A DNA stretch of 64,000 nt from Verrucomicrobiota bacterium (GCA_049510745.1 JBEKYR010000009.1:83487-147486), one strand, 5' to 3'. Positions 5,812 to 64,000 are shown, numbered from the stretch's first letter. Program-made: numbers and translations. Notes: generated by a model not told the origin, from the sequence alone.

Positions 5812-5926
5812 GGGATCGGACCACGATCAAGCGAAAATCATTTTGCCGCATCCGATACTTGCATTCTGCCCCAAGGCACTCCATGCTGGGGCCGGAAAAC
5901 AATTTATTGGTCGTTCTGCAGGTTAG

Positions 5927-7618: not shown

Positions 7619-7666
7619 CCCTGTCAAACAGCTTGCCCAAACCGGGCAGCCAGACGATCTTACACC

Positions 7667-8899
7667 ATGCCTTTTACTAAATTCGGCCTCTCTCCGGCGA
7701 CTCTGCAAGGAGTCAAGGCGATGGGCTTCATCGAACCCACCCCCGTCCAACTGCGGGCCATTCCCTTGATCATGGCCGGCCACGATGTCATCGGCAGCGC
7801 CCAAACCGGCACCGGCAAGACCGCCGCCTTCGCCCTCCCCATCCTCTCCCTGCTCGGCGAGCACGAGCCAAAGACCCGCTGCCTGGTCCTGGAGCCAACC
7901 CGCGAATTGGCCGCCCAGGTCGAAACCGCCATCCACGATTTCGCCCGCTTCACCCGCCTCCGCACCGCCGTCGTTTACGGCGGCGTCGGTTACGGCAAGC
8001 AACTCGACGCCCTCCGCGCCGGCGCCGACGTCATTATCGCCACGCCCGGCCGTCTGCTCGACCACATGGAACGCGGCGCCTGCCGCCTCGATTCCGTCAA
8101 ATACCTCGTCCTTGATGAAGCCGACCGGATGCTCGACATGGGGTTCCTGCCCGATGTCAAGCGCATTGTCCAGAAATGTCCCCGCGAACGCCACACCTCC
8201 CTTTTCTCCGCCACCATTCCCCCGGAGATCGAGACCTTGATCCAGTGGGCCATGAAAAATCCGCAGACGGTGGAAATCGGCGCCCGCCGCACCCCCGCCG
8301 AAACGGTCGAGCACGTCATCTACCCCGTTGCCGAGACGCAGAAGCAGGCCCTGCTCCTCGAATTGCTCGAACGCGTCCAATACGAATCGGTCATCGTTTT
8401 TTGCCGCACCAAACATCGCGCCGACCAGATCGCCCACCTCCTCAAGAAAAACAACCACGCCGTCGCCGTCCTCCATTCCAACCGCACCCAGCGCGAACGC
8501 GAGGACGCCCTGCGCGGCTTCCGCCAGGGACACTACGAAGCCCTGGTCGCCACCGACATTGCCTCCCGCGGCCTGGACATCGCCGATGTCAGCCACGTTG
8601 TCAACTACGACGTGCCCCAGCATCCGGAAGATTACATCCATCGCATTGGCCGCACCGGCCGGGCCGAGCACTCGGGAGACGCCTTCACCCTGATGGTCGC
8701 GGCCGACGCCCCGCACGTTTATGCCATCGAGCGGTTCATAGGCAAAAAGATCGTCCGCCTCAAACTCGACAAGTTTGATTATCAGTACACCGCGCTCTTT
8801 GAAGAGGAGAAGCCGGGACAGAAAGGCTCTTTTCCCGGCAAAGTCCGTGGCGCCCGCATCCGTGGCGGCTATTTCTTCGGCCCGGCCCGAAGGCGCTAA
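7667..8899 (+). CDS. DEAD-box RNA helicase (RhlE-like)
   Basis: Q motif, AQTGTGKT, PTRELA, DEAD, SAT and HRIGRTGR motifs. Confidence 0.95.
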   Translation: MPFTKFGLSPATLQGVKAMGFIEPTPVQLRAIPLIMAGHDVIGSAQTGTGKTAAFALPILSLLGEHEPKTRCLVLEPTRELAAQVETAIHDFARFTRLRTAVVYGGVGYGKQLDALRAGADVIIATPGRLLDHMERGACRLDSVKYLVLDEADRMLDMGFLPDVKRIVQKCPRERHTSLFSATIPPEIETLIQWAMKNPQTVEIGARRTPAETVEHVIYPVAETQKQALLLELLERVQYESVIVFCRTKHRADQIAHLLKKNNHAVAVLHSNRTQREREDALRGFRQGHYEALVATDIASRGLDIADVSHVVNYDVPQHPEDYIHRIGRTGRAEHSGDAFTLMVAADAPHVYAIERFIGKKIVRLKLDKFDYQYTALFEEEKPGQKGSFPGKVRGARIRGGYFFGPARRR

Positions 8900-48690: not shown

Positions 48691-48764
48691 GCGGGTGTGG
48701 TTCAATGGTAGAATGCGGGCTTCCCAAGCCTGAGACGAGGGTTCGATTCCCTTCACCCGCTCCA
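48691..48764 (+). tRNA. tRNA-Gly (CCC)
   Basis: Acceptor stem GCGGGTG/CACCCGC, anticodon loop TT-CCC-AA, T-loop GTTCGATTC, discriminator T and encoded CCA. Confidence 0.97.
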
Positions 48765-48829
48765 ACAGCCACAAGGACTTACGCATATTCCTTCGCTTTT
48801 AGTGCCGGTTTAGTGCCAAACTTTCAATT

Positions 48830-50203
48830 ATGGCGGCAATCAGACAACAGCCGAAGGGAACCCGTCGCAAACCGGCGAGGCGCCCTTCATTCGATGTAAA
48901 ACGCGATTCCGTGCGGGTGCATGTGCGCTTCAGCCCGCAGAAGATCGGTCGTTACTGGTACGAATCTTGGATAGTCGAATATTCCTTCCGCGGCCAGCGA
49001 ATTCGTGAACGGTGCAGCACCGAGCGAAAGGCCAAGACGTGCGCCGATGTCGCAGCCACCAAATTGGCTCACGGCCAGATGGAGGCTCTCGAGCTCCGAG
49101 GTTCTGACCGCCGCATTTATTTGGCGGCTACGGCGCACTTGAGGCCCCTGAAAATTCGCCTTGACGTTGCCGCGCGCGAATATGCGGACGCCAAAAAAAT
49201 AGTCAAGAACGCTGACCTTCGGACGGTGGCTCATTTTTATCAAAAGTTCGGACGCACACAACTCAAGCCCATCACAGTTCCCGAATTGGTTGAAGAAATG
49301 GCAACGGCGCTCGAGCTGGACAAGCGCGGGGATTACCACGTGCGCGATCTGCGGACTCGATTGGGACGATTTGCCAAGGATTTCCCAGGTCAGATCGCGG
49401 AGATCGTGACCGAAGAAATTGAAACGTGGTTACGGCAATTGACATCGTTGGCGAAAGGAACTCGCTGCGGTGGAAAGCCCAAAGGCCGAACAAGGAACAA
49501 CTACCGCAATGCGATTGTCGAGTTGTTTCATTATGCGCGTAAGCACGGTTATTTGCCCAGGGATTTGGCGACAGAGGCCGACGCCGTCAATCGCGTGTCC
49601 GAGGCCGATAAGGCGGAAAATCAGATCTTCGAGCCGGATCAGATGGATGATCTGCTCTCAGAATCACCGGTACATTTGGTGCCTTCAATGGCGATCAAAG
49701 CGTTTAGCGGTGTGCGCACAGAGGAAATCTTCTTAATGGAATGGGAACACGTTCATTTCCGTCGCGGAAAAGGCTACATCATTCTCCCGCGTCCCGTAAC
49801 GAAGAAGAAGCGCCGGCGCATCCTGCCGATTCTGCCCAATCTTCGAAAGTGGATTGCACCGTTTGAAGGGATGAAAGGACGCATTTGCCAGCAGTGGTCA
49901 ACGCCTCAGGGAGTATTCCAAGCATGGGACCGGTTTGCCGCGAAACGGAGTATCAAGGCGGGGGCAAACCGATTTCGCAACAGCTACATTTCGTACAGGG
50001 TCGCTCAAACATCAGATCCCAAGAAGACCGCATTGGAAACGGGCAATTCGGCTGAAGTGATTATGGAGGACTACCTGGAACTGACCACTCCCGAGGACGC
50101 GGCGCGATGGTTCAAGATCACTCCCTCTGCCAATCGTCTTGAGGCTCTCGCGAAACACGCCAACAAACTAAAGCGTGCTCAAGCAGGCACACGCATTGAT
50201 TAA
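48830..50203 (+). CDS. Tyrosine recombinase/integrase
   Basis: FSGVRTEEI (R296), TKKKRRR, NRFRNSYISY (R383) and GNSAEVIMEDY (Y415). Confidence 0.9.
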   Translation: MAAIRQQPKGTRRKPARRPSFDVKRDSVRVHVRFSPQKIGRYWYESWIVEYSFRGQRIRERCSTERKAKTCADVAATKLAHGQMEALELRGSDRRIYLAATAHLRPLKIRLDVAAREYADAKKIVKNADLRTVAHFYQKFGRTQLKPITVPELVEEMATALELDKRGDYHVRDLRTRLGRFAKDFPGQIAEIVTEEIETWLRQLTSLAKGTRCGGKPKGRTRNNYRNAIVELFHYARKHGYLPRDLATEADAVNRVSEADKAENQIFEPDQMDDLLSESPVHLVPSMAIKAFSGVRTEEIFLMEWEHVHFRRGKGYIILPRPVTKKKRRRILPILPNLRKWIAPFEGMKGRICQQWSTPQGVFQAWDRFAAKRSIKAGANRFRNSYISYRVAQTSDPKKTALETGNSAEVIMEDYLELTTPEDAARWFKITPSANRLEALAKHANKLKRAQAGTRID

Positions 50204-50468
50204 ACAACAGGAAGCTGAAGCAACCGATGAGAATGTCCGGCTGGGAGTGACGATCGAAGGCATGCAAATTTCGCCTCTCGATTTCTCATCACTCTGGCCG
50301 GTACCCTCCAATGGAAGTTGCGCACCACCCTGACAACATTTGCGCCGCGATGCAGGTCAGGATCAGCTCTTCCGCTGACATATAATGAATCCTGGCGACG
50401 CGATCGATCCAGGAGGGGTGCCCAGCACACCTTCGCCATCCGGGGGGACAGGTTAGGTTAACCCTTTT

Positions 50469-50558
50469 TTGAACAAAGCCCCTGCGCGGGGACGCAACCC
50501 GCGCAGCCGTTCAAGGGTGGCTGCGCGGGTTGCGTCCCCGCGCAGGGGCTTTGTTCAA
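50469..50558. repeat. Perfect inverted repeat, 40-bp arms, 10-nt spacer
   Basis: TTGAACAAAGCCCCTGCGCGGGGACGCAACCCGCGCAGCC-gttcaagggt-exact reverse complement. Confidence 0.95.
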
Positions 50559-50892
50559 CGAAAGTGGGCGCTAGGATCCCCTGTCCGCCAGTGGAAAGCG
50601 TTAGTGGCGTCGTCCAACCGCGCGGCCCATCGCCAACGTGAACAAATCGAGCGTCGGCGAATTCCCAAAGCAGGCCGGCGGCAACAGCGCAGATCTTCCT
50701 CTTTAACGGCGATGAGCGAATTCGAGATAATCGGTCCTCGCGAGACAATCGAGGCCGTTCGAGCGGCCCACGATCGCAACACAGGTTCCCGCACCGCAGA
50801 AGCTACCGTCGTTTGAGCTTATTTCCCGCTCGAGCTTGGACGGCGGGGCATTCACGTGATGGGAATTGTGAAGCCAGATAAGTCAAGTAGAA

Positions 50893-51594
50893 ATGATAGC
50901 CAAACATTTGTGCATGCTAAACAACGCATGCAATCAATACGGGCCTCACCTGGCGGGCGGTTTGCTTCCCCATGCCCCGGGTCTGGTGAGCGCGTTAACG
51001 GAAGCGCAACATCAACAACTGCACCGCCATGCGGCCACACGGCTGAAGCGGGCCGCCATGAAACCCGGCATGGAGCGGGTGCTGGCCGGCCGCACTCCCG
51101 GCGACCTGGTCAACGATGCTCTGGAAGCCATCCTGGCTGGCGAGGACTCTTCGGGCAAAGGCCGGAAGCTGCCAGCCAAGGCGCGCCGCAGCGTGGAGGG
51201 GTTTGTCTATCACGTCATCAGTGTGATCGACTCGCAGTTGTCCAACCTCTCGACCTCCGCGGAGGCCAAGAGCGTCCATGCCCCTGCAGGCGGCGAGGAG
51301 GCCGGCCCCGGTTTCGTAAAACTGCCCGACCCCATCGATCCGTCAACGATGCTGGAACAACGCGACACGCTGCGCGCAGTGTCGGAGGGCCTGGAGGAAG
51401 TCTTAAAAACGGAAAAGGTCTTGGCGCCCGTCATTCGCTACTGGCAGTTGAATAGCGAGTTCGGAGGAGCAGAGTTTGATTCCAACCAGGTCTTCAGGGT
51501 GCGGCAGCACATCCGCCGCATTCTGCGCCGCCTGGCCATGGAAGTCTGCCCGCCGTCGCAAGAGCGGATCACGGGAATGGAAATGCTGCGGTAA
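50893..51594 (+). CDS. Hypothetical protein, divergent ECF/sigma70-like
   Basis: QLHRHAATRL...TPGDLVNDALEAIL...FVYHVISVIDSQLSN resembles sigma region 2; basic C-terminal helix. Confidence 0.5.
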   Translation: MIAKHLCMLNNACNQYGPHLAGGLLPHAPGLVSALTEAQHQQLHRHAATRLKRAAMKPGMERVLAGRTPGDLVNDALEAILAGEDSSGKGRKLPAKARRSVEGFVYHVISVIDSQLSNLSTSAEAKSVHAPAGGEEAGPGFVKLPDPIDPSTMLEQRDTLRAVSEGLEEVLKTEKVLAPVIRYWQLNSEFGGAEFDSNQVFRVRQHIRRILRRLAMEVCPPSQERITGMEMLR

Positions 51595-51665
51595 CGCCGA
51601 TTCCGTAAAAAAAACCGGCTGTTTTCCAGCATATATATAATGGAAGGGGTTTTAATCCCCCTCCA

Positions 51666-53144
51666 ATGATGAACGAGTTAAACACACCCATCGACCATCT
51701 CTACGAACAGGCCAAGAAAATCCTGGCCGCCAGTCCCGGCATCGGGAAAAAACGCCTCGGGCAGATGCTGGGAATTAAGACGCCTAGTTCTCGGCTGCGC
51801 ATCTTTCGCTATCACGGTGAAACCCAAGGCCATGGCACCGAGCCTGATTACATTCGGGTTCGGCAGTTGAAGGAGGCCAACCTAGACTGGAGCGCCGCGC
51901 GCATCGCCACCGAATTGGGCCTGACGATCGATCACGCCCGCCTGCACCTAGCGCGCTGGCTGGGAGCTCAGAGCTTTCAAGGCCGCAGTGCCGCTGTCCC
52001 CCCGGTGCCTGCAGCAGAGCCAGAGGCTCCTGCCCACGGGGCAGAATTGCGGGTTTGCGGCCAAGGCGACAACCAGGCTCTGAGCTACCGGGGTTCGCGC
52101 ATCCGCACGGTGGAGGAACTGCTGGCGTACACCCAAACCGACACCGCGGTGTGGGAAATTGAGCGGCAGGAGATCAACAAATGGGAAGTCGGAATGAAAG
52201 ATCCGATGGCGGGGGGAATTTTGACGGAGCCGCTGTTTCAAATCAAACTCTGGCTGCGGCGCAAGGCGGCTGAACAGGCGCTGCAAAAGTTCATGAACGG
52301 AATGCTCGAAAAATTTCAGCAAGCGGCTCCGATCCGCCCCAGCATTCCCCGCCGTTCGGGAAACAAAGGTCTCTTGGAAATTTCGATCATGGATCATCAC
52401 TTCGGCAAGTACTGCTGCGCCATGGAGAGCGGGCGGGCCTATGACGCTGACATTGCGGAGCGCATGTTCATCACCGCGCTGGAGGATCTGCTCCAAAAAT
52501 CGGCGGCGTTGCCGACGGAAAAAATCCTGATGGTATGTGGCAACGACTTTTTTAACACGGACCAGCTGGGCCGGACGACGACTGCGGGTACTCCGCAGGA
52601 CGAGGCGCTGCGTTATCAGGAGTCCTTTTTGCGCGGCCGCCAGCTGTTGGTCCGGGCGGTGGACCGTTTGTGCGAAGTCGCGCCCGTCCATGTGGTGATG
52701 GTGACCGGCAATCATGACACCCAACGTTTATACTACCTGGGCGATGTTTTGGCGGCCTGGTTCCGGAACAACTCCGATGTCCAAATCGACAACAGCCCCC
52801 AACAGCGAAAATATTATCTACACTATCGCAATCTCATTGGGTTCACGCACGGCCATAACGAAAAGCATTTTGACCTGCCGTTGTTGCTGGCCACGGAAAA
52901 TCCCGAAGGCTGGGCGGCGAGCCGCCACCGGGAATTTCACTTGGGCCACTTCCATTCGCGCAAATATAAAATGTTTGTTCCCTCCTTTGATAGAGCAGGA
53001 GTGCTCGTCCGCATTTTGCCTTCGCTGTGTCCGCCCGATGCCTGGCACGCCGCCATGGGCTATCGCTCCCGGCTGTCGGCGGAGGCGCTCTATTTCGATC
53101 CTGAGGAGGGATGCATTGCCAATTTCATCCACAGCCCAAGCTGA
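51666..53144 (+). CDS. HTH-fused calcineurin-like metallophosphoesterase
   Basis: All five motifs: DHH, GNDFFNTD, GNHD, THGH, GHFH; N-terminal WSAARIATELGLT HTH. Confidence 0.85.
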   Translation: MMNELNTPIDHLYEQAKKILAASPGIGKKRLGQMLGIKTPSSRLRIFRYHGETQGHGTEPDYIRVRQLKEANLDWSAARIATELGLTIDHARLHLARWLGAQSFQGRSAAVPPVPAAEPEAPAHGAELRVCGQGDNQALSYRGSRIRTVEELLAYTQTDTAVWEIERQEINKWEVGMKDPMAGGILTEPLFQIKLWLRRKAAEQALQKFMNGMLEKFQQAAPIRPSIPRRSGNKGLLEISIMDHHFGKYCCAMESGRAYDADIAERMFITALEDLLQKSAALPTEKILMVCGNDFFNTDQLGRTTTAGTPQDEALRYQESFLRGRQLLVRAVDRLCEVAPVHVVMVTGNHDTQRLYYLGDVLAAWFRNNSDVQIDNSPQQRKYYLHYRNLIGFTHGHNEKHFDLPLLLATENPEGWAASRHREFHLGHFHSRKYKMFVPSFDRAGVLVRILPSLCPPDAWHAAMGYRSRLSAEALYFDPEEGCIANFIHSPS

Positions 53145-53147
53145 AAA

Positions 53148-54968
53148 ATGCCTATGTTTGACTCAATTGGTAGACCACTTGTTGTGTGGCCCTGTTATGA
53201 ACCCGCTGGAGAGCAGGTTGCGCTCACGGAGAACGAGCTGGTGCGGCATGTCTTGCTGCTGGGTTCCACCGGCTGCGGCAAGTCCACTCTGCTCGCTGCA
53301 GCCATGGGCCAGATCCTGGTCCGTTGCGAGGAGAAGGTGGGCCTTTTGGTGTTGGACGCGAAAGCAGACGGCTTGGCGGATCAAGTCCGGGATGCCGCCT
53401 GGCAGGCTGGCCGGAGCAAGGATGTGATGATCTTTGGTCCGGAGGGAGACCATACCCTGGACCTGTTCGAGCCTTTGGGTTCGCTGCAGGGCGTGGAGGC
53501 CATCACTCGGCGCATCATGCTCGCCGCCGATCCCATGAGCGGCGACAATGCCTACTGGCAGACGACGACGGCCAGCATGTACAGCGCCGCTTTCAGCCTG
53601 TATGCCGCCGCGGGCAAGCCGGTCCATTTCAGCGCCGTGATGGAATTCCTGCGGCGCTGGTTCATGTCGCCCACGACGACGCCGGAAATCCAGGTGCTGA
53701 TTGATCAACTGGAGCGGGATAAGAAGCCGCCGCATCCTTTGGTGACGGGTGCCATCGATCAAGCAAAGTTGTGGCAGGACTTGGATCTGCGCACGCGCAG
53801 CGTTGTGCAGAGTTGTTTGCTCAATGTGCTGCGGCCGTTGCAAAGCGCGGCGGCCGCCAGCACGTTCGCGGCGGCTTCGCGGCGTGGTGGCAACCCAGCC
53901 CAGGCCGCGACCGTGGGAGCCATCTGCGTCGCGTCCGTCAATGCCTTGGCGCATCCGGAGCTGGCACGCTTTCTTTTTCGGCTGGCCAAGCAAGTGTTTT
54001 TTGAAGCCGTCCAGCAGCGGTCGGGTGGCATGCAGCGCCTTTGCGGAATCGTCGCAGATGAGCTGCCCTTGGTAGTCACGCGCGAGGACGCTAGCCAGCT
54101 TGCCACCCTGAGGAGCAAACGTTGTTTTTTCTTGGGGGCCAGCCAGGGCCTTCATGCCCTCGCGGAGCGGATCGGCACGAGTCCTATGCATGCCCTTTTG
54201 ACCAACTTCAACACGACTGTGTTTATGCGCTCGACCGAGGCCGAAACAGCGATTCATGCACAATTGACTTTGGGCACGCGCACCGATGCCGTCAAACGCA
54301 GGCCGGAGAGCGAGGGAGGCGGCCTGGGCTTGCTTCCGCCCTGCTCCAGAGAGCCCATCGAAACCGAGGTGTCCGTCTGCCCAATAGGCGCGCTGGCCAA
54401 ACTGGATACCCATCAGGGATACGTGGCGCGTGCGGATGGCTCTCGCACCTTGCAGCCCGTGTGGTTCGTTCCGTGGTTCGAACAGCCTCTAACAACGTCG
54501 GCCGAAAAGTTCACCTCCGAGCACGTTAAGTCCCTGATGGAACGCGCAGGATTCAAGCTGCGATGCTCGCCCTGCGCCGTGGCCTCAGCGGCCGCCAACA
54601 TGGAGCGGACGGACAACAGAGCACTGCAGGCGGCTGTCGTTTTTTTTCGGGCGAAGGCATGCATGCTTCCACGCGGCCTCGACACATTGCCAACTTGCTG
54701 GCTGCGGGCCATTCCGGGGATTCTGTGGCACATGCGCAAGCCGCACTGGCAGCAACTGCCGTTCTTCATTGATCGGTTGAAGATAATCGATGGCCTGCTC
54801 GTGGTGGGCTTTGCACAAGAGGAGCCGCAATCCTGCTCACGTTTGACTCTCTGGGATCGGATCCGAATTGGCTTGAACGCGAGCCTCTATCCGAGTCCCT
54901 GGCGGGCCATCAAACGGCATCACGCTCTGGCCCTTCAGCGCAACGGCCAAAATCTTGAAATTGGATGA
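53148..54968 (+). CDS. VirD4/TraD/TraG-like P-loop ATPase without TM anchor
   Basis: RHVLLLGSTGCGKST, LVLDAK, IVADE, LRSK...ASQ and NFNTTVFMR motifs. Confidence 0.8.
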   Translation: MPMFDSIGRPLVVWPCYEPAGEQVALTENELVRHVLLLGSTGCGKSTLLAAAMGQILVRCEEKVGLLVLDAKADGLADQVRDAAWQAGRSKDVMIFGPEGDHTLDLFEPLGSLQGVEAITRRIMLAADPMSGDNAYWQTTTASMYSAAFSLYAAAGKPVHFSAVMEFLRRWFMSPTTTPEIQVLIDQLERDKKPPHPLVTGAIDQAKLWQDLDLRTRSVVQSCLLNVLRPLQSAAAASTFAAASRRGGNPAQAATVGAICVASVNALAHPELARFLFRLAKQVFFEAVQQRSGGMQRLCGIVADELPLVVTREDASQLATLRSKRCFFLGASQGLHALAERIGTSPMHALLTNFNTTVFMRSTEAETAIHAQLTLGTRTDAVKRRPESEGGGLGLLPPCSREPIETEVSVCPIGALAKLDTHQGYVARADGSRTLQPVWFVPWFEQPLTTSAEKFTSEHVKSLMERAGFKLRCSPCAVASAAANMERTDNRALQAAVVFFRAKACMLPRGLDTLPTCWLRAIPGILWHMRKPHWQQLPFFIDRLKIIDGLLVVGFAQEEPQSCSRLTLWDRIRIGLNASLYPSPWRAIKRHHALALQRNGQNLEIG

Positions 54969-55745
54969 GCGCTTAACCGCGTTTGAACGGGTTTGAACGT
55001 CGCCACCGCGCCGCTCCGCCTCTCGATTCTCATCGCTGCCTGTTTCAGTCACCCATCTGGTTCTAGGCGCGCCGCACCCTTTCGCCCGCCACGCGCCCTT
55101 CCCGCTTTGGCGGGACCAGAGAATCGTTTGTACCACGCCGCCGCCCATTCAGTCACGGATGGTTATCCAGGTCGGTGTCGCGCACCACCCGGATCCCAGA
55201 CCCTTGCGAGCTGACGACGGGAGCAGACCATCTCGGGCTTGACGCCCAAATCTTAATCCCCCAACAACTAGCCTTTCTTTTTGCCAAGCTTTTTCTTTGG
55301 GCAATGCCAAAGAAAAAGCGGCCTCGCCTACGCTAAGGCAGTGGCTGCCGCTGCCAACCAGTCCTGCGCTTATACCAGACCCTTTCCAGGCTCGCGGCAG
55401 CCTCCGCCAATTATCCAAAGAGCATCGTCTCATCAAATTCCTTGCCCCGCATCACGTGCCAAGCGGCCTTGGCCAATTGAGCGCGGCCCCGTTGAAGCAA
55501 CGCTAATCCTTCCGAGCGGCAACCAAGTACCATTCTCCTGCCCCTGAAATTACAAGGCCGAGCTAATAGATTGCAGGTAAGCCGTCGTTTAACGTTCCAA
55601 CGTTCGGTTCGAGGTGAACCGTAAAATGTAAAACGTATGAACGGAACTAAAATGGATGAACTCACGCGAGAGACGACTAAGGCCGTTATCCCGTTTGCAA
55701 CAACAGCCTGAAGACAGCACCACTCACTGGAAGGAGGTGAGAAAA

Positions 55746-55838
55746 ATGCGCACAAAAGATGACCTGGACAACTATGCGAATCAGTTGAATCCAAACAACG
55801 ACGAGTATTGGCATAGCCGCGGCGAGGAAAAGCCGTAA
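55746..55838 (+). CDS. 30-aa micro-protein with NQLNPNN motif
   Basis: Strong SD AAGGAGGTGA 5 nt upstream; MRTKDDLDNYANQLNPNNDEYWHSRGEEKP; hairpin downstream. Confidence 0.7.
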   Translation: MRTKDDLDNYANQLNPNNDEYWHSRGEEKP

Positions 55839-55845
55839 ACTGAAA

Positions 55846-56997
55846 TCAAGGCTGGCGGGAGAAGAACCCGCCAGCCCCTTCCTTCTTGCGGGCTTTCCGG
55901 GCGATTTTTAGGTGGAGGAAAAAACGTCGGTAGTACCGTTGGATTCGCGCGGTATCGTTGTTGAATCCAGCAGCGATCTGCTTGAAGTGATTTTCCAACC
56001 AAAAGGTAATCATCCACGACAAGAGGCAAAAATCCCCTGTCTCCTCGCGTTGATCCAAGGGCAGCTCGCTGCGCTTTGAAATGATTTGCCATGAGCGCCG
56101 GACATTCTTGACGGATGGCCGTTTCTTTCCACTTGTCCAGCAGCTGACCTCCACTGCCTTCGCGTTAATCTCTGACAGAGCAGGGCCATCGCCGTCCAGT
56201 AGCAGCCTGGCCCATTTGCGGCGGGAGCTTTTGCCTGTCCGTTTAATCGCTCCTGCTGATTGCATGGCGTGTTCGAGCCAGACCTTTCGAAATGTTAGTG
56301 GTTCCGGATTTATGACAATCGCGGTGATGTGCTTCTCGATCGACAACCAGAATGGGGCGTGGTGCGATGAAGCGGCACATTCTTCCAGGACTGCCAGTGC
56401 CATCAACGGGCGGTCAAACAGTTGACGGATTAAATGGATCATCTGAATTTTATCCATGGTCGGCCTTCTCGATCTAAGAAAGCGCAGGCGTTGAGGTTCG
56501 GCGAACCGATACGGACTACCAGGAGCGAGCAACGCGTTCCTCCACGCCGTCAGAAGCTCTTCCTGACCGACGAGCACACCACCGTGACGTGGCCATATTG
56601 CTTCCTCTTGAATCAAAAAATCAGCTGCCGGCTTGAGTTCGTGAAGTGGCGGCTGAAGACGTGGATAGTTTGCGCAAATTTGAAAGAACCGCTTCCATGA
56701 GCGGTCCGTGCGGTAACTTCGCCCTTCGGCGATTGTGCCCTTGATCCTTGCCTTCCACGCGTCGAGTTCCTTTTTGGAGCTGGGGTGTGGTTGGTACAGT
56801 AATTCGTTCTCCGGGATACTTGTGCTCCAATTCCGCCCGCGACATTCCTTCCTTGTCGGAAAATAGACTGGCCAATGTTCTTCGATGGATTGCGCGATGC
56901 GCTTCGAGAGCGGGCAACGAAGGTGCTTCGGATAGAACAGATCCCGAAAAGAAGGGTCGTTCTTTTCGAGTATGGCAATAAGTTGCCAGGGATTCAT
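55846..56997 (-). CDS. Hypothetical protein, possible XRE-like HTH near the C-terminus
   Basis: 383-aa ORF; EVSCWTSGKKRPS resembles an XRE recognition helix. Confidence 0.6.
   Translation of the reverse strand: MNPWQLIAILEKNDPSFRDLFYPKHLRCPLSKRIAQSIEEHWPVYFPTRKECRGRNWSTSIPENELLYQPHPSSKKELDAWKARIKGTIAEGRSYRTDRSWKRFFQICANYPRLQPPLHELKPAADFLIQEEAIWPRHGGVLVGQEELLTAWRNALLAPGSPYRFAEPQRLRFLRSRRPTMDKIQMIHLIRQLFDRPLMALAVLEECAASSHHAPFWLSIEKHITAIVINPEPLTFRKVWLEHAMQSAGAIKRTGKSSRRKWARLLLDGDGPALSEINAKAVEVSCWTSGKKRPSVKNVRRSWQIISKRSELPLDQREETGDFCLLSWMITFWLENHFKQIAAGFNNDTARIQRYYRRFFLHLKIARKARKKEGAGGFFSRQP
55850..55876. terminator. Hairpin between convergent genes, possible terminator
   Basis: GGCTGGCGGG-agaagaa-CCCGCCAGCC, 10-bp stem. 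Confidence 0.5.
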
Positions 56998-57092
56998 GGC
57001 GAGGTGGTTCCTTTGCGATCATCGCACAAATTGTGCCGCCGTGTCCATCGACGAACGGCACCGCAATGTCAACGGAACTATGTGAATGGCGA

Positions 57093-57809
57093 TCAATTGA
57101 GTATTTTCCAGACCGGATTGGTTACCTGGGTCTTTGCAGCTTTTCGGAACTCCTTCCTTTTGGTGTAACGGCGTGGCCGAATCGAGCGTTCTTTTTTCCA
57201 CTCCGCCAAGCGCGTGTACACCGTGCGCAACGGCATCTTGATGCGGAATTCTGATTTCAGTGCTTTCTGTGCTTCCGCTGCTGACGGAGGTTTCCCAGTG
57301 AGTTCGTGTTCCTGGTTACACCACTTGAAAAAGGAGGGCTTCAATCGGCGCAGTTCTAAAATGCTGCCCTTTCGCGTATGCGAGAGAGTTCGCTTGAGTT
57401 TTCCTTGGCTCAGATATTCCGCGTCCAACCTTAAGCGGCCGTAAGGCACGCCGCAATCGGTGGAGACGGTGCTCATGGTCACCACCTCAGTTCCTATTTT
57501 TTTCAGGGCCGTGGTCCTTCTGGGGCCAAGTTGGCGTGCGCAAGCCTCAATTTCCGCAATTTGCGCCTTTGTCCACCGGTATCTTCGGTGATTCCCTTTT
57601 GCCCGTTTATCACGCAACGGCAGCCAATACCCCAGCCTCTTGCAACAGCGTCTTGCGGTGCGATTGGAGATTGGGCCTCCTACTCTCCCTGGGGCAGCAA
57701 ACCACCGGATGACCCCTTCAATCGACCTCACCAATCGCGCATCCAGCTGAAGTTTTAGTTGGTCCAGCCGCTCTTCCGTTATTTCCCTCGGTCTTCCGCG
57801 AATGGTCAT
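57093..57809 (-). CDS. Basic multi-HTH protein with IS630-like HTH motifs and no DDE domain
   Basis: GRPREITEERLDQL...ISNRTARRCCKRLGY and EAQKALKSEFRIKMPLRTVYTRL; start trimmed to ATG 57809. Confidence 0.55.
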   Translation of the reverse strand: MTIRGRPREITEERLDQLKLQLDARLVRSIEGVIRWFAAPGRVGGPISNRTARRCCKRLGYWLPLRDKRAKGNHRRYRWTKAQIAEIEACARQLGPRRTTALKKIGTEVVTMSTVSTDCGVPYGRLRLDAEYLSQGKLKRTLSHTRKGSILELRRLKPSFFKWCNQEHELTGKPPSAAEAQKALKSEFRIKMPLRTVYTRLAEWKKERSIRPRRYTKRKEFRKAAKTQVTNPVWKILN

Positions 57810-57957
57810 ACCGGGCTTCTGCCTTCGTAAGTTGTTCGTTATCAATATCACACCGCTCTTGGGTGAAGCGGAGCGGCTCCAGCCAAAATATACGCCAAAG
57901 CGCGATTTAAGTCCAATATTAATAGCGAGGAAAATTGTGCCCACGGGAAAATGAGGT

Positions 57958-58251
57958 GTGAAAAAGCTTCGCCAGGTGGGTGCAAGGGGGAGTCGGGGTC
58001 AGCGACGGTGGCAAAGATCTGCCATCGAAACTGAGGGGCAAAAGTGGCTGACCCGCGAGCAGATGTCCGTTCGATTGGGTGTCTGTATCCGTACGATAGA
58101 CCACTGGGTGGAAGAAGGGACTTTACCCTGCTTCAAGCACGGGGGCGTCGTGAGGTTTGACCCCGATGACTGTGACGCAGCTCTGCGAAAGTTCTATCGC
58201 CGGTCGCGCTGGCAATCGGAGGACGAAAACCAGGAGGAGACCTCGTTATGA
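57958..58251 (+). CDS. Excisionase-like HTH_17 protein
   Basis: WLTREQMSVRLGVCIRTIDHWVEEGTLPCFKHGGVVRFD. Confidence 0.85.
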   Translation: MKKLRQVGARGSRGQRRWQRSAIETEGQKWLTREQMSVRLGVCIRTIDHWVEEGTLPCFKHGGVVRFDPDDCDAALRKFYRRSRWQSEDENQEETSL

Positions 58252-58462
58252 CACCGTTCCTCGCAATGCCGTTTCCTTGCCTGGCTCCCGCGTTGCGGTT
58301 GGCCCGGCTGGGCTCATGCGACGGCCATGTTCTTAGCGCAGAGGGGATGCCGCCGGACAGGATTTCCCCGCTGGCCGTCATTTCCCCGGGCGTCGCTTCT
58401 GTCAAGTGTAAAACAACTACGCCGAACAAGAATCAAGTATCGATAGCAAAATGAATTGACCC

Positions 58463-61400
58463 ATGGAGCCGACCCCACAACCTCAGCCGAGTCCGGGCCA
58501 GAACGGCGATGGCCAAGGTCAGAATTCAAAGGCCGGCGGCATAGTCTATAAGGGGAGGTTCCTGCAGATTTACCATTCGATTGAACCGGAAGGCGCGGAC
58601 AGTTATGCCCTATGGGGCCAGTTGCCGGTTTTCAACGGAGTGCCGCCCAAGGATCTTGAAGCGCTGCTGGTGCCGGGCAAGACGCCGGATGTTTGGGGAC
58701 AGGTCTTTAAAACTCTGGAGGAGGCGAAGTACAAGCTCGAAAGAATTGAGGCCAATTACCCCAGCCCTGCCCTGGGACGGACGACTCTAACAATCATGAC
58801 CGAAGCGGAGCAGCGCGGCGCCGAAGACTTGGTGCTTAACCTGAGAAAGCTGGCGCCTGATCATCCCGACTATATCGGCGAAGCGAAGGACCTTTTCCTG
58901 AAGATTCATGCAAACCAATTGGATCCCATGTGGTGCCAGGAATTCATTGGTATCATGATCAAGGACCTAGGGCCAACCGTACGCGAAGGTCGCCCCACCA
59001 AGTGGCGGTGGGCAATCAACGTCGTTTGCGGCGAATACGGTATACCCACCGGCGACTTTGACCGCAACGGGGAGCCTGTCAAAGATATGCCTTTGGGGGC
59101 CATAACCACGCCAAATCTGCTGGTCCTTAAGGAAAAGTTGCCTCGGAATGCGGCGCGTGCATTATTCCCGATTCTGCGGTTCGAGTTGGACTACGCTGTC
59201 AATAAAAAGTATCTTCGCGAGAACCCAGCCAAGGACATCGCGATACCGGAGCTGCGCGCGGAAAAGGACGCGATGGCGGACAAGGAGGTTGTGGTGGACT
59301 TTCCCGCCCAGGTCCAGATCGCCTTTAACTTGGCGGCCCAGCACCGCAACGGTTATTTCCTGCCGCACGTCACTTTCATGTATCAGCCCCACGTGCGGCC
59401 CGACGGCGAACTTCACCGTTTAAACCCGAGCCGGATTTACCTTGACGAACGCTTGGCGAAAATTCACTCCAGCAAGACCGATCATCGGCGGCTGATTCAT
59501 TTGAGCGTGCCCACGTGCCTGATTCTGCAAAAACGTTGGGATGGAAAATCGCTCAAATTCGATGGTTTCAGAACGTTCTTGGCCATGATGCGGGCGGCGC
59601 AGGGATATGAGGTCGGCGAAGTACCAAAATGGTTTGCGCAGCAATTGCCTCCAACGTGGTCGTTTGCGTTGTGGCAAATAATCGATCTGCGCGCCTTTGC
59701 CAGAAAGTTGCAAACCGGAGCAAATCCTGTTTATGCCTGGCTGCGAGACCAAATGGGCGAGGAAATCAAACAACCTTTAGAACGGAATGGTCAAGACCAA
59801 GTGAATGCGCGCGAGTTGCAAACCATGCTCATTGGGAAGCTTAATAAGATCGTCGAGGGACCTTCGCTGATCGATCTGCCGGTTTTCGAGGACACCGAAC
59901 TGACGGCAGAAATCATTGACCTGCAGAAAAAGAATCCCACAGGGGATGAACTGCGGCGGCTCAACCGGATGGTGTTGCCCGAAGCCTGCTGCGAATTGGC
60001 GAGGATACCACGCATGGTTCAGGATATTCCGCGGCATACGGGTCGTTCCGCTTACGCCAAGTTCGAGGAATGGGTTGATGATACTTACGACAGGGAAAAA
60101 ACCCGGCGCGTGTTCAAGGTCTCCTACGACGCCGTGCTTACCCCTAGGCAAACGGCCGCGCTTTATCCAATTCTTCCGGAAGGATTTCCCGTGACCGACG
60201 AAGAGCGGCAAGCCATGTTGGAAGAATTAGCGCGCTTTAATCTATTAAAAGATGCAACCCTCCCGGAGCCTCCTATTGTGCCCACGTATGTCGCCAATAA
60301 ACCGTCAAAAGAGCATCAGATTCCAAAGATTGCCGACGAACTGCTTGAGCGAATGATGTTCAAACAGGGAATGAAAGCCACAGCCAAAGAGCTCGTAATT
60401 TCCGAATTCTGGTTGCGCGCCATCTGCAAAGCGAAGGCTCTTCGCACGCCCCCAGGCGGACGATTCTCCGGGCTCAATCCCGATGACTTCCCGAAACGGC
60501 CGCCCCTGGTAACCCTTTCCAATGCAGATCTTGAAAAATCGATCAAAGACCACCATGGCGTTGCCATGACCGCTCGCGCGCTTGAAATCAATGCCGAAGC
60601 GCTGTTGGCATATTGCATCCTGAACAACATTCGCCTGCCGAGCCGCCGTGAGATTGCGGCATGGACGAATACGTTGCCCAGGGTAACGGAATCGCCCCGG
60701 CAAATCAGGGCGTTGTTGGCCCGGGAACCCGTCGCGGAAGTTGCTAAAAAAGCCGGCCGCAACGTAACGGAGGAACATTTGCGAAAATATTGCCGCCGCC
60801 ACGGCATCGAAATCCCGGAACAACCCTCGGCCGGGCCGGGCGTCGCGGATATCGACGCTGTCAAAACAGCATTTGTCCGGACATTGGCTAGCCGCAACGT
60901 CAGGGATCTCGAGACAGTTGAAATAATCGAACTGTTGCTCAGGCACGCTCCGCACGGCTTAACGGATATGGAGATTATCGAAATCCTGGGGACGCACCAG
61001 GTTCAGATGACACGGCCGATGGTTCAGCACGCCGTCGTTGTGACGAGCCGGGGGCGCCTTCAGCGCTATAACGGCCGGGTGCATCTTCTGGTTCAAGAGG
61101 CAATCCTCGATTTGGACAAGCTAAAGCAAAGCGTCCAGCAGGAACTGCAAAGCCAGAAGCAATGGAATAAGCTGCAGGCCATTCTCTTTGTGCTCAAAGA
61201 GGCGAAGACCGGAATTTCACTTGCGCAGCTGGTGGTCGTGCTTTCCTGGTTTGGGATCGAAATGGCAGTCGAACCGCTTAAAAACGCGCTCCGCCAGTAC
61301 CAGAAACGCGCACTGGTAGAGTTCTACAAGGGGATGGTCACCTTGCCAGAGAACATTCGACCTTGCGCGATCCGGCCGGACGAGACCGAAGCAACTCCAA

Positions 61401-61972
61401 ACCTTGGTGAAATCACCGCCAAGGTCCAGATGGATTACGCGGCGCTGGCAAACAAGCAGTTCACCAACGTCGAAATGATGGACTTTGTTCTGAGCCGGGC
61501 CCCGCAAGGCCTCTGGGTCGACGAATTCCTTGCCATTACTAAATCGTTCGGTGTCGATTTTAAGCGGCATTGCATCCACTCCGTAGTAACCCACGAGGCT
61601 CCAGAAAGATTCAAACGCCAATCCGGCCGTTTGGTACGCGAAAAGGCCGCCCCCACACTCCTCCCCAGGGTAGCGATCCAGACTCTTCAGGCTGTGGTTG
61701 ATCAAGTCCAAGTCTCCCCGGTCGATGAGAATGGCGAGGTGGCCTTGCAGATTCTGATTGACTTTCCCCAGGGGCTTCATCTTAGGGAACTCCATGTGGC
61801 CATAGGATTGGCCGGCCGGCACCCCAATTACGATTCATTTCGCAGAAACTTGCATGTCTACGCCAAACGCAATCGCTGCCTCATAACGGACGCCCGGGTC
61901 ACTTTTGTTGTGTCCAGTCAAACCCAAAACCCGTTGCCGACACAACCATCGCAAGAGGCCATAGCCGCATGA
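58463..61972 (+). CDS. Giant tyrosine recombinase-like protein with inserted domain and tandem HTH/wHTH repeats
   Basis: YLRENPA core-binding motif, VRPDGELHRL (R312), SKT (K338), DIPRHT (R524) and VFKVSY (Y555); about 600-aa repetitive C-terminus. Confidence 0.75.
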   Translation: MEPTPQPQPSPGQNGDGQGQNSKAGGIVYKGRFLQIYHSIEPEGADSYALWGQLPVFNGVPPKDLEALLVPGKTPDVWGQVFKTLEEAKYKLERIEANYPSPALGRTTLTIMTEAEQRGAEDLVLNLRKLAPDHPDYIGEAKDLFLKIHANQLDPMWCQEFIGIMIKDLGPTVREGRPTKWRWAINVVCGEYGIPTGDFDRNGEPVKDMPLGAITTPNLLVLKEKLPRNAARALFPILRFELDYAVNKKYLRENPAKDIAIPELRAEKDAMADKEVVVDFPAQVQIAFNLAAQHRNGYFLPHVTFMYQPHVRPDGELHRLNPSRIYLDERLAKIHSSKTDHRRLIHLSVPTCLILQKRWDGKSLKFDGFRTFLAMMRAAQGYEVGEVPKWFAQQLPPTWSFALWQIIDLRAFARKLQTGANPVYAWLRDQMGEEIKQPLERNGQDQVNARELQTMLIGKLNKIVEGPSLIDLPVFEDTELTAEIIDLQKKNPTGDELRRLNRMVLPEACCELARIPRMVQDIPRHTGRSAYAKFEEWVDDTYDREKTRRVFKVSYDAVLTPRQTAALYPILPEGFPVTDEERQAMLEELARFNLLKDATLPEPPIVPTYVANKPSKEHQIPKIADELLERMMFKQGMKATAKELVISEFWLRAICKAKALRTPPGGRFSGLNPDDFPKRPPLVTLSNADLEKSIKDHHGVAMTARALEINAEALLAYCILNNIRLPSRREIAAWTNTLPRVTESPRQIRALLAREPVAEVAKKAGRNVTEEHLRKYCRRHGIEIPEQPSAGPGVADIDAVKTAFVRTLASRNVRDLETVEIIELLLRHAPHGLTDMEIIEILGTHQVQMTRPMVQHAVVVTSRGRLQRYNGRVHLLVQEAILDLDKLKQSVQQELQSQKQWNKLQAILFVLKEAKTGISLAQLVVVLSWFGIEMAVEPLKNALRQYQKRALVEFYKGMVTLPENIRPCAIRPDETEATPNLGEITAKVQMDYAALANKQFTNVEMMDFVLSRAPQGLWVDEFLAITKSFGVDFKRHCIHSVVTHEAPERFKRQSGRLVREKAAPTLLPRVAIQTLQAVVDQVQVSPVDENGEVALQILIDFPQGLHLRELHVAIGLAGRHPNYDSFRRNLHVYAKRNRCLITDARVTFVVSSQTQNPLPTQPSQEAIAA

Positions 61973-62053
61973 AAGCCGCATGAGGTTGGGCATCTCCGGC
62001 CTCTTCGAGCCTTGAGAACACCAAGCTCTGGATTCCCGGTTGCTGGATCAAAC

Positions 62054-62170
62054 GATGCCGCCTCTGTCCGTTAGTTCACCATTTTCGCCTTCGAACCAAG
62101 GGACATGGACGGTTAAAGGCAGGCCGTGCATGTTCTCTGAGATGGTGAAATAACGGATAGATGCGGCGTT
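62054..62170 (+). ncRNA. Candidate structured RNA or ssDNA hairpin
   Basis: 29-bp outer and 18-bp inner stems; 7 of 11 non-Watson-Crick positions are G.U on the + strand. Confidence 0.45.
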
Positions 62171-62579
62171 TTCGCCGTTGGTGCCATCCTGGCGGGTTGG
62201 CCCCCCTCCAATTAGCCGGCGCCGCGCTGGCGTTGTACTCCTACCTAACCATCGAAGATGTTGGCCATTGCGGCGGGATGTATTAACCTAAGAACGGCAG
62301 TTGAAGTGTAAACCTCTTGGGTTTCCGGATTCATTGATGCCCGGCGCGGCGACGTTTTTCGTGGATTTGGACCGTGGCTAACCTGGCACCCACGCCTGTT
62401 GCCCAAACCAGGCCCGGCAAGCGGCCTCCCGCTTCCGGAAAGGCGTCAAAATCCGCTCCCGAATCCGCTCCCTGCACTGCTGGCTGCTCAACTGCTCCGC
62501 AGCATTCCTGAGTCCGGAAAACCTCGATCCGCCGGCGGCGGCGATCCGACCAGCAGCGGCCGGGCCATCCCGCGCATCG

Positions 62580-62815
62580 AACCGGATCACGCCGACCCGA
62601 TTTACCTTGCCAAACACGGCGCCTTCATCGCCGCGCTGGGAAAGCGTTATGACGGCACTCCGGGCGTGGAATTCCTCGACATCGGTTCCTACGGCATCTG
62701 GGGCGCGTGGCATTCGACCCATCCGGCGCCCGTCGCCGTGCGCAAGCAGACCGTGGACATGTACTTGCAGGCCTTCCCGAAGACTCCCCTCCGGCGGCGG
62801 CGGCGGGCGGTTTAA
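62580..62815 (+). pseudogene. Internal fragment of a DUF4832/GH-A clan glycoside hydrolase
   Basis: DPIYLAKHGAFIAALGKRYDG...DIGSYGIWGAWH...YLQAFPKTPL; both ends missing, expected WGEWH reads WGAWH. Confidence 0.6.
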
Positions 62816-62995
62816 CACCCCCTGCCAGCGTTCGTTGAAGGCCATGGACCCGAATCCGGCTACGCAGCCCTGCCGTTTGGATCCGGTGGAGGTTTCGGAA
62901 TGGATTTACGCTCACCCCTCCTTTTGGATGCGGGATGTTCATGAGTGCCATCCGAAGGAAGACCCCCCGACAGGAGCACCGGGCATTTTGAGGGT

Positions 62996-63037
62996 GTGCA
63001 ATTCTGCGCTTGCACAATTCCTCAAATTAGTTGAGGA
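62996..63037 (+). promoter_or_regulatory. Two inverted repeats upstream of the AbiEi-like gene (putative autoregulatory operator)
   Basis: GTGCAA-N8-TTGCAC and TCCTCAA-N5-TTGAGGA. Confidence 0.45.
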
Positions 63038-63044
63038 TATGTGC

Positions 63045-63641
63045 ATGAATAAAAACGATTCTTTTGCGGCTCTGATGACGGTGGCGCAAGACCAGCAAGG
63101 TTACTTTACCACCAAGCAGGCGATTGAGGCCGGTTACGCGGACAACACGCACCCGTATCACGTCCATGCGGGGAATTGGGAGCGAGTGTACCGGGGTATT
63201 TATCGGATAGCGCATTTTCCGCCGCCAGAGGACGGGGAGATGATGGCCTGGCTGCTTTGGTCACGGGGGCGCGACGAAAAGCCGGTGGCCGCGATGTCGC
63301 ACCAAACCGCCCTCAGCCTGTTCGAGTTGGGAGATTTCAACACGGCCAAAGTCCACATGAGCGTGCCAAAAACATTCCGGCGAAACAGCCCGACTCCCAA
63401 AGCGGTCGTGCTCCACCGCACAACACTGGCACCCGCTGAGGTCACGCAACTGCGCGGCCTGACGGTATGCCGCCCGCTACGGGCGCTGTGCGACCTGGCC
63501 AACGCAAACCCGGATGCCGCCGCCGATCTCCGCCCCATCGCGGTCGAGGCGCGGCGGCGCGGTCTTATCACCGAGCGCGAACTTTCAGGCATGAAAGAGC
63601 GGAAGGATGCGCGGAAAATCGTCGCCACCCTGTTGCCATGA
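63045..63641 (+). CDS. Type IV TA AbiEi family antitoxin
   Basis: AQDQQGYFTTKQA, WERVYRGIYR, SHQTAL..F.L and GLTVCRPLRALCDL motifs; start trimmed. Confidence 0.85.
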   Translation: MNKNDSFAALMTVAQDQQGYFTTKQAIEAGYADNTHPYHVHAGNWERVYRGIYRIAHFPPPEDGEMMAWLLWSRGRDEKPVAAMSHQTALSLFELGDFNTAKVHMSVPKTFRRNSPTPKAVVLHRTTLAPAEVTQLRGLTVCRPLRALCDLANANPDAAADLRPIAVEARRRGLITERELSGMKERKDARKIVATLLP

Positions 63642-63829
63642 GTCGTTACCAAACGCCCCAAAGCACTGCCCGATTCGCCTACGAATATGGTTACAATCAG
63701 GTGTTTGCGGAAGATGCCATGGCGGCCTTGTCGGCGGAAGAGCACATGCTCACCGTTGCCAAGATATTTCCTCGGATTGGCTTGGTGAGAAAAACCGGGG
63801 AAATATTGGCCGATCTGTCGCACGATTGA
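63638..63829 (+). pseudogene. Chimeric remnant: probable AbiEii toxin start fused to an isochorismatase-family C-terminus
   Basis: ATGA overlap with AbiEi; MSRYQTPQ then STARFAYEYGYNQVFAEDAM...IFPRIG. Confidence 0.65.
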
Positions 63830-63967
63830 TTCATTATGGGTTTTCGCTTCAGCCGGCGCGTGAGCATTCTGCCGGGGCTTAACCTAAGTTCCTTTTGATT
63901 TTGCGTAAGTGCTTGCAAATCAAAGCAACGGCCAGAAAATGTAGCAAGTAATAATTGATTAAATCTC

Positions 63968-63996
63968 TTGACATACCTATGGTCCCGCTTTATTCT
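63968..63996 (+). promoter_or_regulatory. Sigma70-type promoter for a gene beyond the window
   Basis: TTGACA-N17-TATTCT. Confidence 0.45.
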
Positions 63997-64000
63997 GTAG

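Follow-up and report, generated by a model that had tools for sequence, protein, structure and literature searches.

A probable mosaic genomic island at a tRNA-Gly gene of a peat Verrucomicrobiota genome, with a divergent integrase and a predicted giant recombinase

What kind of element begins at the tRNA-Gly gene near the end of contig C9 in a Verrucomicrobiota genome, and is it one element or two? The window, by which we mean the whole stretch of 64,000 nucleotides (nt) that was analyzed, is the final 64 kb of that contig (base 64000 is the contig end), in a genome of 85 contigs and 5.6 Mb that belongs to the Limisphaerales, was assembled from a peat metagenome and is 94% complete. An original prediction, made from the sequence, had described positions 48691 to 62200 as an island with a tRNA, an integrase, a palindrome, a cargo operon, a small open reading frame (micro-ORF), two leftward genes, a divergent xis gene, a giant recombinase and a hairpin, and all of these features are present. 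Our main conclusion is that the stretch is probably the left-hand 15 kb of a genomic island of mosaic structure, lodged in the 3' end of tRNA-Gly(CCC), and that its insertion was most likely the work of int1, a divergent tyrosine integrase of 457 amino acids (aa) encoded next to the tRNA gene. Behind int1 come a cargo trio (o233, o492 and o606) and a right-hand block composed of two leftward genes (o383 and o283), xis, and the gene of the predicted giant recombinase P0001 (1169 aa). Window proteins were compared with four family libraries (Pfam, PADLOC, NCBIfam and PHROGs), and the rarity of genes was surveyed in 401 genomes of the order.

The integration target is the tRNA-Gly(CCC) gene itself (48691-48764, plus strand), which was called by ARAGORN and by the Rfam tRNA model (69.2 bits). 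It was the only feature recognized when the window was scanned with Rfam, microRNA-like matches on the palindrome described below staying under the threshold. The final 30 nt of the gene (48735-48764, plus strand) are common to all island junctions in our alignments and constitute the junction repeat on the attL side; metagenome contigs that come from the chromosome side break off at 48735. The repeat is followed by the island left end (48765-48829, plus strand), which is kept in the sister-island junctions of contigs C9, C10 and C17, where the aligned junction region has a mean column identity of 83%, and loci L017 to L019 have the same left end as the window. This left end contains GGACTTACGCATA, a candidate integrase-binding motif.

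The position of int1 (48830-50203, plus strand), which starts 66 nt 3' of the tRNA gene, carries most of the argument. In 8/8 loci, a gene of the int1 family follows immediately upon a tRNA-Gly 3' end, each time with the conserved left end; these loci are seven public ones (69-94% identity) and a paralogue on contig C10 (81%), and two of them stand at full tRNA genes (CCC and TCC), the other six at displaced fragments, that is, in stacked islands. We consider this position strong evidence that int1 is a tRNA-Gly integrase, as predicted from the sequence, and the same loci indicate that the family is specific for the tRNA-Gly 3' end. The integrative island originally placed at this tRNA gene is upheld. 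Close relatives of int1 come from metagenome-assembled genomes labelled Limisphaerales or Verrucomicrobiota, and the analysis documents a family of predicted tRNA-Gly-specific integrases in peat Verrucomicrobia that standard profiles overlook. At the protein level, int1 matches the PHROG integrase family phrog_1 (E=7e-15), and its C-terminal half is similar to P0020, a recombinase of 686 aa (E=1e-6). The best Foldseek matches of its AlphaFold2 (AF2) model are lambda Int, XerA and Tn1549 Int, recombinase matches that lend weak support to the predicted integrase identity. In the mechanism that we propose, int1 would act on the tRNA gene and on an attP site that bears the tRNA 3' end, recombining the two, so that the gene would be regenerated and a displaced fragment would be left at the far end. 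Lacking genes for its own transfer or replication, such an island would depend on passive movement or on a helper.

Displaced fragments are frequent in these genomes. Nine displaced tRNA-Gly 3' fragments, all outside C9, were found in this genome, in addition to three full tRNA-Gly genes with this end, and partial copies of the end are common in 30 relatives too. Judged from these copies, tRNA-Gly is a heavily reused landing site, and a strong stacking hot spot, in this group. None of the nine fragments could be linked to the present island or joined to contig C9. An unusual case is found on C17 (34495-38761, corresponding to 4496-8762 of locus L003), where a 4.2-kb unit lies between tRNA-Gly(TCC) and a 30-nt displaced copy; the left end of this unit is of the int1 type as far as the start codon, but no integrase follows, and its content is limited to an Eco57I/MmeI-like methylase-nuclease (1051 aa) and a 225-aa ORF.

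Composition and comparison with relatives were examined as well. The G+C content (GC) is 0.52-0.62 within the island, as against 0.63-0.69 in the upstream flank, which holds a DUF748 gene. The comparison with relatives that had been suggested at the outset was run, and in G001, a genome of the same genus, a tRNA-Asp stands beside the DUF748 gene, and this tRNA-Gly and the island are missing. Placing the far flank by means of relatives did not succeed, synteny being broken and G001 and G006 pointing to two different parts of contig C26. The genes of the island are rare or absent in related genomes, and its DNA is present in many peat metagenomes.

At the other end, the original prediction had noted that no duplicated tRNA 3' end could be seen by eye, and our search agrees: there are 0 further copies in the window at up to 3 mismatches, and the 16-mer core likewise gave none. 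Since the window stops at the contig end, a repeat missing from it does not prove that there is no attR. The end formerly set at 62200 proved not to be a boundary, as low-GC foreign DNA, which includes an AbiEi gene, continues to 64000. The contig is broken there by a repeated insertion sequence (IS)-like element, and the right end of the island is therefore out of view.

Several results weigh against an island inserted by int1. As neither the right end nor attR was recovered, the term island rests on the left junction, on composition and on comparison. For this strain, neither an excised circle nor an empty site came to light among assembled contigs, the form in which we used sequencing runs and one in which rare forms are invisible. 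The score of int1 against Pfam Phage_integrase is weak (17.7 bits, under the cut-off of 27.1), the first His of its catalytic set is replaced by Asn, its AF2 model has low confidence (predicted local distance difference test, pLDDT, of 53.9), and a profile of the int1 family matched no solved structure in the PDB.

Whether the parts of the stretch belong together was addressed by comparing contig depth across four runs, including X3 and X9. In X3, an independent sample, a single contig of 12,006 nt spans 50529-62534 with zero differences, at a depth of 26.1 versus 25.7 for the chromosomal flank; the parts of the island are therefore one physical unit in this strain. The picture differs in X9, where 49.0-54.9 kb is present at about 10x as a 98-99% variant, 55.0-62.2 kb at 0.5-2.8x, and the DUF748 flank at 0-1.3x. 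Uncovered parts alone prove nothing, and the reading rests on the contrast between 49-55 kb and 55-62 kb inside one run; from this contrast it follows that int1 and the cargo live in another background without the right-hand block.

Related loci show the same division. Metagenome contig L060 is 98.8% identical to the window through 54975, 7 nt past the o606 stop codon, and unrelated beyond; past this breakpoint it has two unrelated leftward genes, followed by a xis homologue (46%) and P0005, a relative of P0001 (41%), in the same order as here. The sister island on C10 comprises an integrase (81%), an Mrr nuclease, a helix-turn-helix (HTH) regulator, a xis homologue (48%), a 127-aa ORF and a large serine recombinase; we were unable to place the boundary of this island, as its junction repeat is preceded by DNA that is repeated as well. 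In L018, a large serine recombinase is found downstream of a 92% integrase. The predicted layout, in which an integrase and cargo are followed by one or more leftward regulators, a divergent xis and a large recombinase, is thus one that recurs, in C10 and in L060.

Two other int1 loci argue against the xis-recombinase cassette as a fixed part of these islands. L017 (integrase 94%) has RHS cargo; the 10 kb behind its integrase hold no homologue of the window xis and, among the larger ORFs as searched with Pfam, no recombinase. On contig C5 of genome G016 (901835-963509, loci L025 to L028), an int1-family gene heads a 61.6-kb stretch between two tRNA-Gly ends, with peptidoglycan-recycling and sugar-transport genes, two IS copies, and no homologue of the window xis or recombinase; it represents either an extensive metabolic island or a piece of backbone that happens to lie between two repeats. 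These two loci together mean that the cassette is optional in int1 islands. Our reading is that the right-hand block would be an optional cassette exchanged as a unit, presumably between related islands and by recombination just past the ATPase gene o606; this recombination may be the work of its own recombinase or may be homologous. The nuclease/ATPase trio would then be a first module, the block a second one, and the AbiEi gene with the IS-like element a third.

The second module would be a recombination cassette in its own right, made of two variable leftward genes, xis and the large recombinase gene. The product of xis (57958-58251, plus strand) is an AlpA-like protein of 97 aa, of the HTH_17/MerR type, which matches the excisionase family phrog_66 (1.1e-9) and, less well, the small terminase family phrog_57 (1.1e-5). 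Besides those of C10 and L060, a xis homologue also precedes a large recombinase in L061, at 31% identity (25% for the recombinase). Xis would serve it as directionality factor or activator. The role proposed for the whole xis-recombinase cassette is an inference, which counts against this part of the scheme. A 68-aa ORF at 58248-58454 does not resemble xis. Of the leftward genes, o383 (55846-56997, minus strand) is replaced in L060 by a non-homologous gene of 303 aa; o283 (57093-57944, minus strand) is divergent from xis, and its C-terminal part has relatives just after the integrase in L020 (41% over 142 aa) and L023. No family was matched by o383 in the four libraries, or by o283 in Pfam and PHROGs. 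Protein-atlas feature matches of o283 to HTH_23/28/32 clusters (0.85-0.88, below 0.9) are a weak lead to its being possibly an HTH regulator.

P0001 (58463-61972, plus strand) has a predicted tyrosine-recombinase fold in its N-terminal part, interrupted in the catalytic region by an inserted domain; 3 small HTH units and 4 winged helices come after it. Its full-length relatives are P0005 and P0008 (47-48%). P0020, which passes Pfam Phage_integrase (PF00589), aligns to residues 14-410 and 515-669 of P0001, and R312, K338, R524 (in RHTG) and Y555 are invariant in an alignment of four sequences. The AF2 model has a pLDDT of 76.5 and places the HTH and winged-helix units after residue 620; Foldseek matched it to XerD and lambda Int (probability ~1.0), Brujita Int and XerA, in a range of 0.85-1.0, and to the SelB four-winged-helix tail (0.97). 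From sequence and model, 'giant tyrosine recombinase' is a fair name for the protein, its catalysis being predicted. Other results tell against the name: P0001 falls in no family of the four libraries, its first catalytic His is Asp521 and its last His/Trp was not identified, the model has a pLDDT of <50 at residues 520-558, where R524 and Y555 sit, and the Foldseek template modelling (TM) scores are 0.2-0.3 on the 1169-aa query. A sequence search of the PDB returned nothing for P0001, and a keyword search of the literature returned nothing like it, that is, no large tyrosine recombinase with a winged-helix array, which is not proof that none has been published. By BLASTP, no relationship between int1 and P0001 is detectable (E=0.37).

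The protein is very rare. Among 1.84 billion representatives there are 243 matches at E<=1e-3, of which only 12 are below 1e-30, and the full-length protein occurs in 1/401 genomes of the order, namely this one. A C-terminal relative is found in G386; its context, among IS copies, is uninformative. Most other matches in the order stem from the inserted domain, of ~105-125 aa (P0001 ~395/410-515; window 59640-60010), which accounts for 20/22 of the genomes matched and is absent from P0020. This domain matches no Pfam family and is found in >200 otherwise unrelated proteins, such as Ser/Thr kinase-FGE, TssG, LptE-like, CHASE2-TIR and polysaccharide export proteins, as well as in giant proteins of up to 4181 aa; its protein-atlas feature matches all score <0.9 and are leads only.

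Downstream of P0001 lies a long imperfect hairpin (about 62055-62170; z=-6.1 versus shuffled sequences). Its right arm is a 40-nt patch (62120-62159) that is 82.5% identical to positions 8078-8117 of L060, where it lies 220 nt after P0005, although P0001 and P0005 are only 41% alike. Neither L060 nor L058 forms such a hairpin (z about 0.5-0.65). The conserved patch may be a site of binding or crossover, and P0001 probably acts at sites that would be bound by its C-terminal array, for example this patch or the hairpin.

These features bring up the most serious competing explanation, which we judge unlikely while giving it real weight: an island within an island, in which 54976 to about 62.3 kb would be a separate element with P0001 as its integrase and xis as its excisionase, the L060 type having inserted at the same spot. 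The identical left breakpoint of two versions that are 41-46% alike speaks for it, as do the X9 variant, with int1 and cargo and without the block, the pairing of xis with a recombinase even in the distant L061, and the divergence of xis (46-48%) where int1 stands at 81%. The conserved non-coding patch and the hairpin right after the recombinase gene would also suit such an element. It is opposed by the search for its ends. No direct repeat of at least 9 nt links the left junction (54976) to the region after P0001 (to ~62.6 kb) in the window, and none that is meaningful does so in L060; a conserved 22-nt motif has a single copy in the window; no right breakpoint was mapped, L060 and the window sharing only the 40-nt patch beyond; and no contig was found in which 54975 runs straight into about 62.3 kb, as at an empty site. 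The serine recombinases in the same slot of C10 and L018 fit module shuffling equally well. The earlier suggestion of two tandem islands fares similarly: its two halves are indeed separable, as L060 and X9 indicate, but no att repeat or tRNA fragment was found between the int1-cargo part and the right-hand block.

A bolder idea, to which we give little credence, is that the AlpA-like gene and the large recombinase gene (tyrosine here, serine in the sisters) form a self-contained, swappable mobility cassette, in which the C-terminal array would seize the hairpin or patch, and which would move between islands or nick the DNA for transfer by a helper. If true, it would be a recombinase-driven hitch-hiker inside integrase-only islands.

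That the stretch is not mobile at all, being conserved backbone or a long-dead remnant with decaying recombinase genes, seems to us very improbable. The lack of an attR and of any excision product seen would agree with it, and so would the IS that landed in the stretch, a CRISPR (clustered regularly interspaced short palindromic repeats) array reduced to one degenerate repeat, and an AbiEi gene without its partner. On the other hand, every large ORF is intact, int1 and the cargo are found at 98-99% in another population (X9) without the flank of this chromosome, the genes are rare in the order, the GC differs from that of the flank, and a same-genus relative is without the locus.

How does the island compare with systems already known? 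Integrase-only islands that sit in tRNA genes and lack known transfer genes form a large kind already described (Islander, PMC4383910; Ares-Arroyo et al. 2026, bioRxiv 10.64898/2026.01.13.699239), as far as the available portions of both sources go. The island fits among such tRNA-gene (tDNA) genomic islands or integrase-only islands, and the proposal of an undescribed class does not survive. It shares with the Islander/TIGER and P4-like islands an integrase beside a tRNA 3' end that serves as the junction repeat, displaced tRNA fragments, stacked islands and variable, defence-like cargo; it differs from them in that its integrase is too divergent for Pfam, its far end was not recovered, and several family members have, behind an AlpA-like gene, a second recombinase of large size. 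Our understanding of genomic islands is left unchanged, the odd part being this recurring second recombinase: a very rare 1169-aa protein with an inserted domain and a winged-helix array, which comes with an AlpA-like gene in what appears to be an exchangeable block. Like the iOriT elements of Ares-Arroyo et al. (2026), as presented in the available part of that report, the island has defence-type cargo and no relaxase, mating-pore, replication or capsid gene; here, by comparison with those elements, the host is a Verrucomicrobium, no helper is known, and relatives do not share the hairpin that adjoins P0001.

The possession of two tyrosine recombinases, of which one is exceptionally long, is also a trait of the strand-biased circularizing elements (SEs), which have IntA and a large IntB (PMC9345347), and of the GInts, which are elements with several tyrosine recombinases (PMC5385486). 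In the accessible parts of these two papers, the recombinase genes are core genes clustered at one end, whereas here they are 8 kb apart and unrelated; and IntB of the SEs has an N-terminal extension, whereas P0001 has an internal insertion and the C-terminal winged-helix array.

The original prediction had also pointed to a likeness with phage-inducible chromosomal islands (PICIs) and integrative mobilizable elements (IMEs). The likeness to PICI and P4-type satellites is one of gene order: an integrase at one end, one or more leftward regulators divergent from an AlpA/xis-like gene, this gene at the head of a rightward operon with a large DNA-binding enzyme, and a regulatory block that varies like a specificity region. 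What defines a satellite is missing: neither a primase-replicase nor origin iterons were found, nor any gene for packaging or capsid redirection such as terS, cpm or ppi. The fold of the large protein is that of a recombinase, and no relatives are found in the viral collection; an iteron array was searched for in the island, and none was found. The defining features of IMEs and integrative conjugative elements (ICEs) are missing too, no relaxase family being present and o606 falling far below the cut-offs for coupling proteins. Very improbable, in our judgement, is a satellite-like or mobilizable element in which P0001 would be an atypical relaxase or initiator at the hairpin and the coupling-protein-like o606 would hand the DNA to a helper: it draws on this gene order, on the matches of o606 to TraD/VirD4-type models, on the stable hairpin with a conserved arm that adjoins P0001, and on the idea, raised for SEs in the part of PMC9345347 available and citing a Clostridium plasmid, that a large tyrosine recombinase may be a relaxase, and it is opposed by the lack of any significant primase, helicase, Rep, mobilization (MOB) relaxase, terminase, capsid or other structural family in the four libraries, as had been predicted, by the absence of P0001 relatives from 72,556 plasmid records and from a viral contig collection, by a hairpin that is not conserved in L060 or L058, by a depth equal to that of the chromosomal flank, and by the properties of o606 given below.

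The cargo operon (50893-54968, plus strand) consists of three co-directional genes for proteins of 233, 492 and 606 aa. The first, o233 (50893-51594, plus strand), has no family match in the four libraries. The second, o492 (51666-53144, plus strand), encodes a Mre11/SbcD-like metallophosphoesterase nuclease that matches phrog_704 'DNA repair exonuclease' over its full length (9e-72) and is slightly under the cut-off for Pfam Metallophos. The third, o606 (53148-54968, plus strand), encodes a soluble P-loop ATPase of the HerA/FtsK/TraD type (TrwB_AAD_bind 3e-7, TraG-D_C 2e-5; DUF87 8.8e-5, at 23.1 bits just below the 23.2-bit cut-off). Against the NCBIfam TraD/VirD4 conjugation models it scores 32 bits, with cut-offs of 250-366, and since its Walker A motif lies at about residue 30, there would be no room for a membrane anchor. 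It has 78 relatives in a large protein set, none informatively named, and occurs in 9/401 genomes of the order. Homologues of o492 and o606 are adjacent in 5/5 loci fetched (L063 to L067), and an o233 homologue is nearby in 4/5. The neighbourhood of the trio is conserved in other Verrucomicrobia and, according to protein matches, in other phyla.

The trio is probably a defence or DNA-processing system. Its patchy spread is typical of defence genes, and as an unnamed nuclease/ATPase set that travels on islands it is a candidate defence system. It resembles the SIR2-HerA and HerA-DUF4297 defence pairs and the archaeal HerA-Mre11 neighbourhoods in that a HerA/FtsK-type ATPase is locked to a nuclease-type partner and occurs sporadically on islands; it differs from HerA-effector pairs in its partners, a Mre11/SbcD-like phosphoesterase and a 233-aa protein. 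A defensive role finds no support in PADLOC, in which o233 and o492 have no match and o606 has weak P-loop matches only, those to HerA models included; the trio is likewise unnamed in NCBIfam. The available portions of the literature on HerA defence pairs concern other partners, and no experiment on this trio was found there.

Between int1 and the cargo operon lies a perfect palindrome with 40-nt arms and a 10-nt loop (50469-50508/50519-50558), which has the appearance of a two-way terminator. The genome has no second copy of it, and in five sister regions no comparable inverted repeat was found, apart from one 14-nt palindrome in L021. Metagenome contigs are interrupted here (50469-50558), and in the X9 variant of the island the palindrome is without its central 56 of 90 nt and small insertions are seen nearby. 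Either a short terminator hairpin may have grown recently into the long palindrome, or the palindrome may have been collapsed in the X9 contig.

After the cargo operon comes a non-coding gap of 770 nt (54976-55745), which contains the degenerate single CRISPR repeat (55474-55503, minus strand). A true CRISPR array of at least 11 repeats of 36 nt is found in L060 (8824-9566), ~1 kb past its giant recombinase, and an array of a related repeat on contig C69 of G000 (1-220), 230 nt before a displaced tRNA-Gly fragment. A search of this genome (94% complete, as noted) for Cas1 gave nothing, and the CRISPR arrays of these islands apparently come without cas genes. The gap ends at the micro-ORF (55746-55838, plus strand), which encodes 30 aa from the ATG at 55746, behind GGAGGTG, or 60 aa if read from 55656, the 30-aa frame being the more likely. 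Its product would be MRTKDDLDNYANQLNPNNDEYWHSRGEEKP, with a strong ribosome-binding site ahead of the gene and a strong two-way terminator (55848-55878) after it.

In the part of the window beyond P0001, depth climbs from about 62230 in all four runs. The AbiEi antitoxin-like gene (62607-63641, plus strand; PADLOC AbiEi 2.8e-62) belongs to a multi-copy module with copies on C50 (93%) and C25. An AbiE toxin-antitoxin system was considered and rejected, no AbiEii following the gene; a tblastn search with the AbiEii of C50 matches C50 alone. A 91-aa ORF (63607-63882) without a Pfam match stands just before the left end of the multi-copy IS-like element (63881-64000, plus strand), with which contig C9 terminates. 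The same ~117 nt of this element form the ends of six contigs (C9, C30, C33, C40, C59 and C66), each time straight after TAA, TAG or TTA, so that at least six insertion places are known. Its body is missing from the assembly, and the element causes contig breaks. A diverged copy is found at the end of C26, and the end of the element holds a near-consensus promoter directed inward.

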